From Candidatus Anstonellales archaeon (GTDB taxonomy: Archaea > Micrarchaeota > Micrarchaeia > Anstonellales > J096): a DNA stretch of 64,000 nucleotides. Shown one piece after another: positions 9,498 through 58,323 of the stretch. Location of the stretch: contig JAWACY010000002.1 in assembly GCA_038896535.1 (NCBI GenBank), positions 96,001 through 160,000 on the forward strand, in the 5' to 3' direction. Under the pieces are notes generated by a model that worked only from the letters and a program-made list of their open reading frames with translations, ran no database searches and was not told where the DNA came from. The translations under genes and the position numbers were made by a program. Each line of letters starts with the position of its first letter. Position 1 is the first letter of the stretch.

Positions 9498-9611
9498 ATT
9501 TTATATAATTGCATAAGTTTTTAAAGCCTTTATACAAATATTTTTTTAGTGATGACATGAACAACCTCTGAACATATGATGAAGCTGACAGCGTCTGAAT
9601 TTGGTGGTAAT

Positions 9612-58171: not shown

Positions 58172-58323
58172 TGCCGCGGGTGGGATTCGAACCCACGACC
58201 TCCAGATAGCCCAAAGCCAAATTATAAATTTATAAATTAAATTCAAACATCATTGCATAAGCTCAGCACTCATAGATATATGCTTCCATGAGTCTGGCGT
58301 TCTACCAACTAAACTACCGCGGC
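58172..58323 (-). tRNA. Elongator tRNA-Met(CAT) with 79-nt intron at 37/38 (exons 58287-58323 and 58172-58207)
   Basis: GCCGCGG/CCGCGGC acceptor, CCAGA/TCTGG anticodon stem; bulge-helix-bulge: CTCA:TGGG central helix, TG|G and CT|A bulges, AAGC:GCTT closing helix. Confidence 0.95.
58247..58276 (-). ncRNA. Intron-encoded box C/D-type guide element predicted to methylate tRNA-Met C34
   Basis: Guide TCTATGAGT-G, box D CTGA (58263-58266), hairpin GC-TTAT-GC, box C-like ATGATG (58248-58253). Confidence 0.75.

Follow-up and report, generated by a model that had tools for sequence, protein, structure and literature searches.

A candidate box C/D guide module with a single kink-turn in the intron of an archaeal elongator tRNA-Met gene

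Results

The elongator tRNA-Met gene and its intron

The stretch analyzed here (the window) comprises 64,000 nucleotides of contig JAWACY010000002.1 (positions 96,001 to 160,000) of the Candidatus Anstonellales archaeon assembly GCA_038896535.1, a genome of 751,790 bases in 5 contigs that is 91% complete and is called G000 below. On its minus strand lies an elongator tRNA-Met(CAU) gene whose intron probably serves as a box C/D-type guide aimed at C34 of its own precursor. The Rfam tRNA match at 58323-58172 carries a long insertion in the anticodon loop, and the gene was missed by ARAGORN in its default setting and called once introns were allowed. With introns allowed, 43 tRNAs were identified in the genome, two of them with the anticodon CAU. 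Since the second of these is intron-less and has initiator features (A1-U72 and three G-C pairs, GGG/CCC, in the anticodon stem), the tRNA-Met at 58172-58323 is the only elongator tRNA-Met found in the genome. The parts of the gene, in window coordinates, are as follows (BHB, bulge-helix-bulge).

58172..58323, minus strand: elongator tRNA-Met(CAU) gene with intron, G1-C72 (Rfam RF00005, 61.9 bits; ARAGORN -i)
58287..58323, minus strand: 5' exon, positions 1-37, position 37 being G (read from the RNA; BHB geometry fixed by hand and enforced in the fold)
58208..58286, minus strand: intron of 79 nt at the canonical 37/38 site (hBHBh' motif)
58208..58217, minus strand: 3' strand of the splicing motif, with h' GCUU, H UGGG and the bulge CU (enforced BHB fold)
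58172..58207, minus strand: 3' exon, positions 38-73 (sequence reading and Rfam match)

The splicing motif of the precursor is of the hBHBh' form, in which helix H pairs C32-A35 with UGGG (58213-58210), the two bulges of 3 nt each are U36 G37|G and C U|A38, and the inner helix h' is AAGC/GCUU. A first-pass annotation made from the sequence had given 58208..58290 as the coordinates of the feature; the intron itself runs from 58286 to 58208, and the remainder of that stretch is C34-G37 of the 5' exon. The G at position 37 (58287, minus strand) is peculiar to this gene, as A37 is found in the 117 other unique sequences of the 118 collected from this genome and its relatives, and MAFFT places a GG insertion at the exon-intron junction. 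Four hot-spring metagenome runs belonging to two studies yield contigs with the same letters at the locus, so that G37 is probably real. A37 is the usual site of N6-threonylcarbamoyladenosine in tRNAs reading codons that start with A.

Guide, boxes and kink-turn in the intron

Reading the intron 5' to 3' along the RNA, we recognized the following elements (MFE, minimum free energy).

58285..58293, minus strand: target strand, A31-G37 plus the first two intron bases (A31 C32 U33 C34 A35 U36 G37 G(i1) A(i2)), with C34 at 58290; 9/9 pairs with the guide
58268..58276, minus strand: antisense guide UCUAUGAGU, pairing 9/9 with the target, one pair being G-U (G37-U)
58263..58267, minus strand: linker G (58267) and D'-type box CUGA (58266-58263), by sequence reading
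58255..58262, minus strand: kink-turn stem I and loop GCUUAUGC, GC-UUAU-GC; the homologous stem covaries in relatives
58247..58254, minus strand: 3-nt bulge AAU (58254-58252) and C'-type box AUGAUGU, in which G3A4U5G6 is 58251-58248, by sequence reading
58225..58245, minus strand: A+U-rich hairpin insertion, present in the G000 intron and in none of the relatives' introns (MFE and centroid folds)

The fifth base upstream of CUGA, a G at 58271, pairs with C34 (58290), which is the register expected of a box C/D guide. The first-pass annotation had proposed this arrangement, namely a guide of 9 nt pairing with positions 31-37 and two intron bases through one G-U pair, C34 opposite the fifth base from the box, and a kink-turn formed by CUGA and AUGAUG. 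The pairing and the register were borne out on inspection (9/9 pairs), and the kink-turn fits at the level of sequence and has a stem I that covaries in relatives. The internal part of the module thus has what a box C/D small RNA (sRNA) should have, as CUGA, hairpin, AAU and GAUG make up a D'/C' kink-turn or kink-loop with the conserved GA/GA, and an antisense of 9 bp stands just upstream of D' with its target nucleotide, C34, at the fifth base. The general pattern of a kink-turn, a Watson-Crick C stem followed by a 3-nt bulge and tandem G-A/A-G pairs, is likewise present in the sequence; the pair D'1:C'6 is C-G, and all box residues are consensus.

The other half of a canonical sRNA is absent. 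A terminal kink-turn of RUGAUGA and CUGA closed by the RNA ends was not found, as the intron contains one CUGA and one UGAUG, no further CUGA or UGAUGA, no terminal C/D pair and no second guide, indicative of a natural half-mer. The single pair in D-then-C order had been noticed in the first-pass annotation, which called the intron a half or circularly permuted guide; the first of these descriptions stands and the second is not needed, and boxes that circularization of the G000 intron might create were sought and none is present.

Both the free MFE fold and the centroid fold of the precursor contain the 9-bp guide hairpin (z -3.56; 0/200 shuffles as stable). For the anticodon arm plus intron, the guide-hairpin conformer is the MFE structure at -24.7 kcal/mol, compared to -17.2 kcal/mol for the enforced BHB conformer. 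Because both use C32-A35, the guide duplex and the BHB helix are mutually exclusive.

For this intron, 106 of 300,000 mononucleotide shuffles contained AUGAGU, N-NUGA at the offset and a nearby UGAU or UGAA, and the 11-nt core pattern ATGAGTNNTGA occurs 2 times in the 64-kb window against 0.51 expected. These counts make the single sequence only suggestive, and the case rests on conservation. A permissive Rfam search over the intron returned sub-threshold chance matches only, and no curated family covers the module.

Conservation in related archaea

A covariance model of the module (R1) was built from a MAFFT alignment of 29 sequences and a structure that we supplied. R1 found exactly one match per genome in 124 of the 151 genomes of the order (57/62 of those of high quality; 42/45 genera), and matches in 128 of the 151 genomes of an even sample of the phylum Micrarchaeota (113/133 of high quality; 70/85 genera), a tally which takes in one unpublished genome (G195). 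The G000 intron scored 49.6 bits, in the middle of the range. A comparison of related tRNA-Met introns had been proposed at the outset, and it resulted in guide and boxes conserved in these proportions of order and phylum together with a covarying kink-turn stem. In BLAST searches of the precursor against 40 relatives, similarity continues into the intron, other families included. The layout common to the relatives' loci is guide, one base, NUGA, hairpin, RAU and GAUN.

Pattern searches gave a complementary view. Of 176 genomes of the order, 39 (19/48 genera) were matched by an exact pattern including the guide, with 1 match for the backward control pattern. A pattern free of the guide, describing the anticodon arm and an intron of at most ~61 nt, matched 22 genomes, 20 of which carry the module, all with the same spacing; 4 guide variants among these 20 are invisible to the exact pattern, and the remaining 2 matches belong to genus g5, with short introns lacking the module.

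Additionally, one genome per prokaryotic species was scanned with the pattern AGACTCAT, gap, TRTGAGTNNTGA, gap, RATGA, which gave at least 120 loci; as the pattern prescribes A29-G30-A31 on one side of the anticodon stem, the sample is one of lineages with that stem. Among the matches listed, ~105 lie in tRNA-Met genes according to hand reading of flanks and titles, and 15 are chance matches with no tRNA context, mostly bacterial. By title, the tRNA-Met matches listed comprise at least 44 from Micrarchaeota, Micrarchaeia or Anstonellales, at least 11 from Hadesarchaea or Hadarchaeota, at least 11 from metagenome-assembled genomes (MAGs) titled uncultured Methanosarcinales, at least 6 from Woesearchaeota, at least 4 from Aenigmatarchaeota and at least 3 from Marsarchaeota-titled MAGs. 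One or two each come from Nanohaloarchaea, Nanoarchaeota, Nanobdellati, Undinarchaeota, Diapherotrites and Methanobacteriota, and at least 17 are titled merely "archaeon". One locus with the module, L099, belongs to a Candidatus Micrarchaeum strain for which a complete genome record exists.

Across the 118 unique sequences the elements are distributed as follows, part of the uniformity having been imposed by the searches.

Intron length: 34-135 nt, median 52
Guide: UAUGAGU 92, UGUGAGU 25, AAUGAGU 1
Linker base: G 79, U 25, A 14
D' box: AUGA 68, CUGA 36, UUGA 12, GUGA 2
Bulge: GAU 77, AAU 33, UAU 6, other 2 (RAU in 110/118)
D'2:C'5: U-U 78, U-C 28

The guide core U(A/G)UGAGU is therefore found in 117/118, a count that the searches partly imposed, and the GA of the C'-type box is invariant. 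The shortest introns of relatives, 34-45 nt in length, have no space for a second C/D motif.

Two further elements of the relatives' introns were considered. A CUGAG frequent at their 3' ends was rejected as a D box, because variants of it read UAAG, CGAG and UGGG and it is the BHB strand opposite C32-A35. A stretch AAAAGGCGCUC 3' of C' is conserved in many relatives (e.g., L013, L060 and L046) and absent from the G000 intron; it is complementary to tRNA positions 22-28 (GAGCGCC) or, alternatively, to the 3' end of the guide. Neither a role as a second guide nor a helix with the 3' end of the guide was accepted, since just 6-8 nt are complementary, a box is lacking and no clear covariation was seen by eye. 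Several relatives (L002, L005, L011, L013 and L030) also have a second intron in the T-arm of tRNA-Met; the G000 gene has the anticodon-loop intron only.

Target register and covariation

The spacing between guide and box was evaluated in 100 unique sequences from the order, obtained with the patterns and the model. It is standard in 95 of them, 94 having a one-base linker and N[U/C/A]GA and one having AGGA, and hence C34 stands at the fifth base from the box (N+5) nearly everywhere, with the flanking loops and stems free to vary. The five others belong to genus g24 (L212, L235, L237, L254 and L255), where one extra base stands between the guide and the GA of the D' box (GC and GNGA) and the C' is GACG; this base could be read as a 5-nt box with an extra pair, as a 2-nt linker or as a shifted target register.

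Stem I of the kink-turn is maintained by compensatory changes. Its first three pairs are paired in 113/116, 109/112 and 85/93 sequences, compared to permutation means of 66.7, 70.0 and 42.7, all four Watson-Crick types are used, and hairpin length and sequence vary yet the pairing is kept. In an alignment made by MAFFT only (A1), 88.8% of the cells are paired vs. 80.3% after shuffling (0/500 as high), and registers slid along the alignment give 27-45%. The model-fitted alignment (A2), which leans towards the structure and whose 101 rows include one spurious partial match, has 90.2% of cells paired vs. 77.2% shuffled, with 29-48% for slid registers, and a covariation score of 0.236 vs. 0.077 shuffled (0/500). 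For stem I alone, the paired fraction in A2 is 98.8%, and double changes number 21, 26 and 29.

Covariation also extends over the splice site. In 71/93 sequences the first intron base is paired to the nucleotide immediately preceding the guide (A-U 47, G-C 8, G-U 7, U-A 7 and C-G 2). Because A38 of the spliced tRNA could not be the partner in the 17 non-U cases, the unspliced precursor appears to be the substrate. The intron is BHB-bounded at 37/38 with a guide duplex over the exon-intron junction, as in the tRNA-Trp introns discussed below; a duplex across the junction in competition with the BHB helix had been foreseen in the first-pass annotation, and the covarying junction pair and the shared use of C32-A35 agree with it. 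Furthermore, target and guide arms are joined by 3-4 bases in many lineages, including UUCG and GAGA loops, which favors pairing within one molecule.

Lineages without the intron module and free sRNAs of family f17

The intron module was absent from all members of family f17 that were searched, 0/8 in the R1 phylum sample and 0/5 in the pattern search, and from genus g5 (0/6 with R1 in the order). Free-standing canonical dual-guide C/D sRNAs with the same guide were identified in 2 of the 5 f17 genomes searched (L272, G250:C1:34969-34991 region; L273, G270:C18:10552-10574 region). They consist of a C box, a 13-nt spacer ending in UAUGAGU-N, NUGA, a GNRA-capped hairpin that resembles stem I of the introns, a C' box, a 12-nt guide and CUGA. 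The D' guide of the sRNA in G250 pairs with 7 exon bases and the first 3 intron bases of that genome's own pre-tRNA-Met, whose intron is 26 nt long. For the second guide of the f17 sRNAs, GACCUUGAGUG, the nucleotide at N+5 would be C34 of a tRNA-Leu(CAA)-type loop. That the combination of guide, box and hairpin takes the D'-C' place of a bona fide C/D sRNA is the strongest argument for a methylation guide over a mere L7Ae site.

Weaker second matches of R1 in other Micrarchaeia (L267-L270; genomes G190, G188, G192 and G214) are tRNA-Trp introns. In these introns the element antisense to the Trp anticodon loop, AUCUGGA, comes after the single kink-turn (UUGA, GCC..GGC, GAU, GAUG) and hence lies 3' of C'. 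The tRNA-Trp intron of G000 is only 15 nt long and lacks the module.

C/D machinery encoded in the genome

The proteins of a C/D system are encoded in G000, with matches to fibrillarin (G000:C2:4758-5387; 249.6 bits), a Nop-domain protein (127.4 bits) and L7Ae (G000:C2:63765-64031; 97.5 bits). The Nop5 homologue has 232 aa (G000:C2:234180-234878; L032:1297-1995), and relatives' Nop open reading frames (ORFs) are mostly 233-310 aa. Its alignment with Pyrococcus Nop5 covers residues 196-365 and, weakly, residues 112-155; as this similarity begins near residue 112, the canonical N-terminal fibrillarin-binding domain is not evident. In a search with Pfam NOP5NT no control genome reaches the cut-off, and an adjoining 232-aa ORF upstream of Nop5 has no Pfam or PDB sequence match.

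Six canonical dual-guide sRNAs were found in G000 with a strict pattern (C, 12 nt, CUGA, 3-4 nt, C', 12 nt, CUGA), which suggests that the C/D system is in use. One of these sRNAs lies in the window.

9549..9598, plus strand: dual-guide C/D sRNA (GUGAUGA, 12 nt, CUGA, ACAU, AUGAUGA, 12 nt, CUGA)

Another of the six (G000:C2:6295-6343) is separated from the fibrillarin gene by ~900 bases. The genome showed no other credible C34 guide, as no further ATGAG-NN-NUGA site has C/D context by eye. Among the remaining tRNAs, an intron-containing tRNA-Ile(UAU) lies at G000:C2:208746-208846 and no third CAU tRNA was found by ARAGORN in the genome, so that AUA is probably read without an agmatidine-type tRNA-Ile2.

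Discussion

Comparison with known systems

The nearest published counterpart comes from Nanoarchaeum equitans, where the RNA from the 66-nt elongator tRNA-Met intron was described as stable and abundant, with a coverage value of 31,500 (Randau, 2012, Genome Biol 13:R63, PMC3491384). That RNA has a box D, a box C with one mutation and a G+C hairpin, and was described as "potentially guiding RNA methylation"; the Plexy result for its target was "no prediction," and anticodon, C34 and wobble are absent from the main text of the paper (PMC3491384). The report mentioned in the first-pass annotation is real, and as far as its main text goes it names no target. Compared by eye, the two introns agree in host gene, intron site and order of parts (a UAUGAG-type antisense, one base, CUGA, a G+C hairpin and GAU-GAU). 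Whereas the N. equitans RNA was presented in that text as a peculiarity of the species and its stability was shown, the module described here is known from sequence, has an assigned target and is near-universal in another DPANN phylum. Besides Randau (2012), we found no paper describing a guide in a tRNA-Met intron, in a literature search in which subscription journals fell largely outside the coverage.

The euryarchaeal pre-tRNA-Trp intron (Pyrococcus sR50 and Haloferax volcanii) is, as summarized in a review (PMC7994747), a complete sRNA with C, D', C' and D that guides 2'-O-methylation of C34 (Cm34) and of U39 (Um39). According to the same review, it shares with the Met intron a D' antisense lying over the exon-intron junction, its own C34 at N+5 and rivalry with the splicing fold (PMC7994747). 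The tRNA-Trp intron as described there has two guides and both C/D and C'/D', whereas in the Met intron a single guide accompanies a single kink-turn and the terminal C/D pair is missing, so that this intron lacks the two guides (C34 and position 39) with both motifs which define the tRNA-Trp type. Guides acting in trans on Cm34 of elongator tRNA-Met include a Pyrococcus sRNA mentioned in the review (PMC7994747) and, in humans, SNORD97/SCARNA97. These trans guides have the same target nucleotide and machinery, but are free-standing with a terminal C/D pair, whereas the Met-intron guide sits inside its target. A haloarchaeal trans guide for Cm34, sR-tMet, reportedly needs the intron-containing precursor, as would the f17 sRNA of G250 judging from its pairing over the junction.

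An engineered single-site "hemi" box C/D ribonucleoprotein (RNP) was reported as active and not site-specific in vitro (Hardin and Batey, 2006, PMC1635284). As described in that work, it has one kink-turn and one guide like the Met module, but is synthetic and acts in trans, whereas the Met module is tethered to its substrate by a hairpin. The locus is a further case of a published and barely characterized kind, and the present evidence gives that kind a predicted target, a probable mechanism and a wide distribution.

Proposed mechanism and its alternatives

Taken together, these results suggest, with a probability that we put at roughly 0.7, that the tRNA-Met intron acts as a natural box C/D guide of half-mer form, with one kink-turn, directed at C34 of the precursor in which it lies. 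The observations made in silico are that guide and target pair at a standard spacing, that the module is conserved and covaries, that the two folds exclude each other, that genes for the proteins are present and that canonical free sRNAs of a sister family contain this guide; protein binding, methylation, its timing relative to splicing and action in cis rather than in trans are inferred. The D'-type NUGA and the C'-type GAUN, closed by stem I with a 3-nt RAU bulge, would form a kink-turn or kink-loop that binds L7Ae, and this complex would recruit Nop5-fibrillarin. The 7-9 bases just 5' of the D' box would form a duplex with A31-A/G37 and the start of the intron, in many relatives as a tight intramolecular hairpin, and this would place the ribose of C34 at the fifth pair from the box for fibrillarin to make Cm34. 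Opening of the duplex would then allow the alternative BHB fold, reusing C32-A35, after which the splicing endonuclease and ligase would remove the intron; the excised intron may persist as an L7Ae-bound RNA.

The same guide might instead work in trans only, such that an excised (perhaps circular) intron RNP, possibly paired on a Nop5 dimer, methylates other pre-tRNA-Met molecules, perhaps including the initiator. Such a role would accord with the trans activity reported for the tRNA-Trp intron guide in the review cited (PMC7994747), with the stability and abundance reported for the N. equitans intron RNA (Randau, 2012, PMC3491384), with the f17 sRNA that carries the same guide in trans and with the loop of the genome's own initiator (GCUCAUA), whose G31-A37 could pair 7/7 with one G-U. 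However, 3-4-nt loops (UUCG, GAGA) close the duplex in many relatives, favoring intramolecular pairing, and the guide hairpin is the MFE fold of the precursor, and we therefore consider trans-only action unlikely. It is also conceivable that the kink-turn binds L7Ae non-catalytically, for folding, protection, timing of splicing or stability of the intron, and that the antisense is an anticodon-masking helix without methylation. L7Ae does bind the kink-turns of many RNAs that are not guides, hemi-complexes with one kink-turn were non-specific as reported (PMC1635284), and lineages without the module keep fibrillarin. This explanation nevertheless leaves unaccounted for the fixed one-base linker and C34 at N+5 in 95/100 sequences whose loops and stems range from 3 to ~40 nt, as well as the identical guide inside canonical dual-guide C/D sRNAs, and appears improbable to us.

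Two further explanations concern the standing of the G000 copy. The module could be a decaying relic in this genome, as might be thought from the G37 that is unique among the 118 unique sequences, the 2-nt change at the junction (the GG insertion in MAFFT), a stem I of only 2 bp, the A+U-rich insertion and the mid-range R1 score of 49.6 bits. But the guide side fits the changed junction (G37-U, G-C and A-U; 9/9 pairs), the box residues are all consensus with C-G at D'1:C'6, and the locus is identical in contigs of four runs and two studies, which makes decay very improbable. A chance resemblance would be expected in ~3.5 of 10,000 shuffles for one intron, and ATGAGTNNTGA does occur twice in the window; the presence of one copy per genome in 124/151 and 128/151 genomes, always in tRNA-Met and with covariation, refutes it, and we give it next to no credence.

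Several results weigh against the module being a C34 guide in cis. Only 7 bp of the duplex are invariant, A37 faces a mismatched guide base in many relatives (19/94 have the guide GAUGAGU), the D'1:C'6 pair is formed in just 51/118 sequences (permutation mean 37, maximum 50), and the g24 sequences (5/100) have one extra base at the boundary between guide and box. Fibrillarin is kept in module-less g5 (5/5) and f17 (5/5); no replacement guide was found with the same pattern in 3 of the 5 f17 genomes, and none was found in g5, where the search with a trans-guide pattern gave one dubious match in 5 genomes. As the hemi C/D complex was reported to be non-specific in vitro, a lone kink-turn may not fix the site unless hairpin geometry or dimerization does so. 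Additionally, the exact patterns impose parts of the motif, making the "invariant" counts partly circular, and related genomes are non-independent samples.

Implications for guide RNAs and intron retention

A more far-reaching reading, to which we give slightly less than even odds, is that a natural one-kink-turn C/D enzyme acts in cis, with the tether and not a second kink-turn setting the site; that the intron is retained across Micrarchaeota, other DPANN and Hadarchaeota as a Cm34 guide; and that the module has moved between intron and free sRNA. The occurrence of the guide in cis (intron) and in trans (free sRNA) in sister families offers a natural comparison for how guide RNAs enter or leave introns. 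At ~45-80 nt, the module would also offer a minimal box C/D substrate of natural origin, in which a single hairpin holds guide and target beside one kink-turn. Such a substrate lets one ask how site specificity arises without the bipartite architecture reported to be needed in vitro. Importantly, the N. equitans RNA that was reported without a target would now have one assigned, and the persistence of one tRNA intron in very small genomes gains a concrete and testable explanation, namely that the intron would be a tool for modifying the anticodon which it interrupts.

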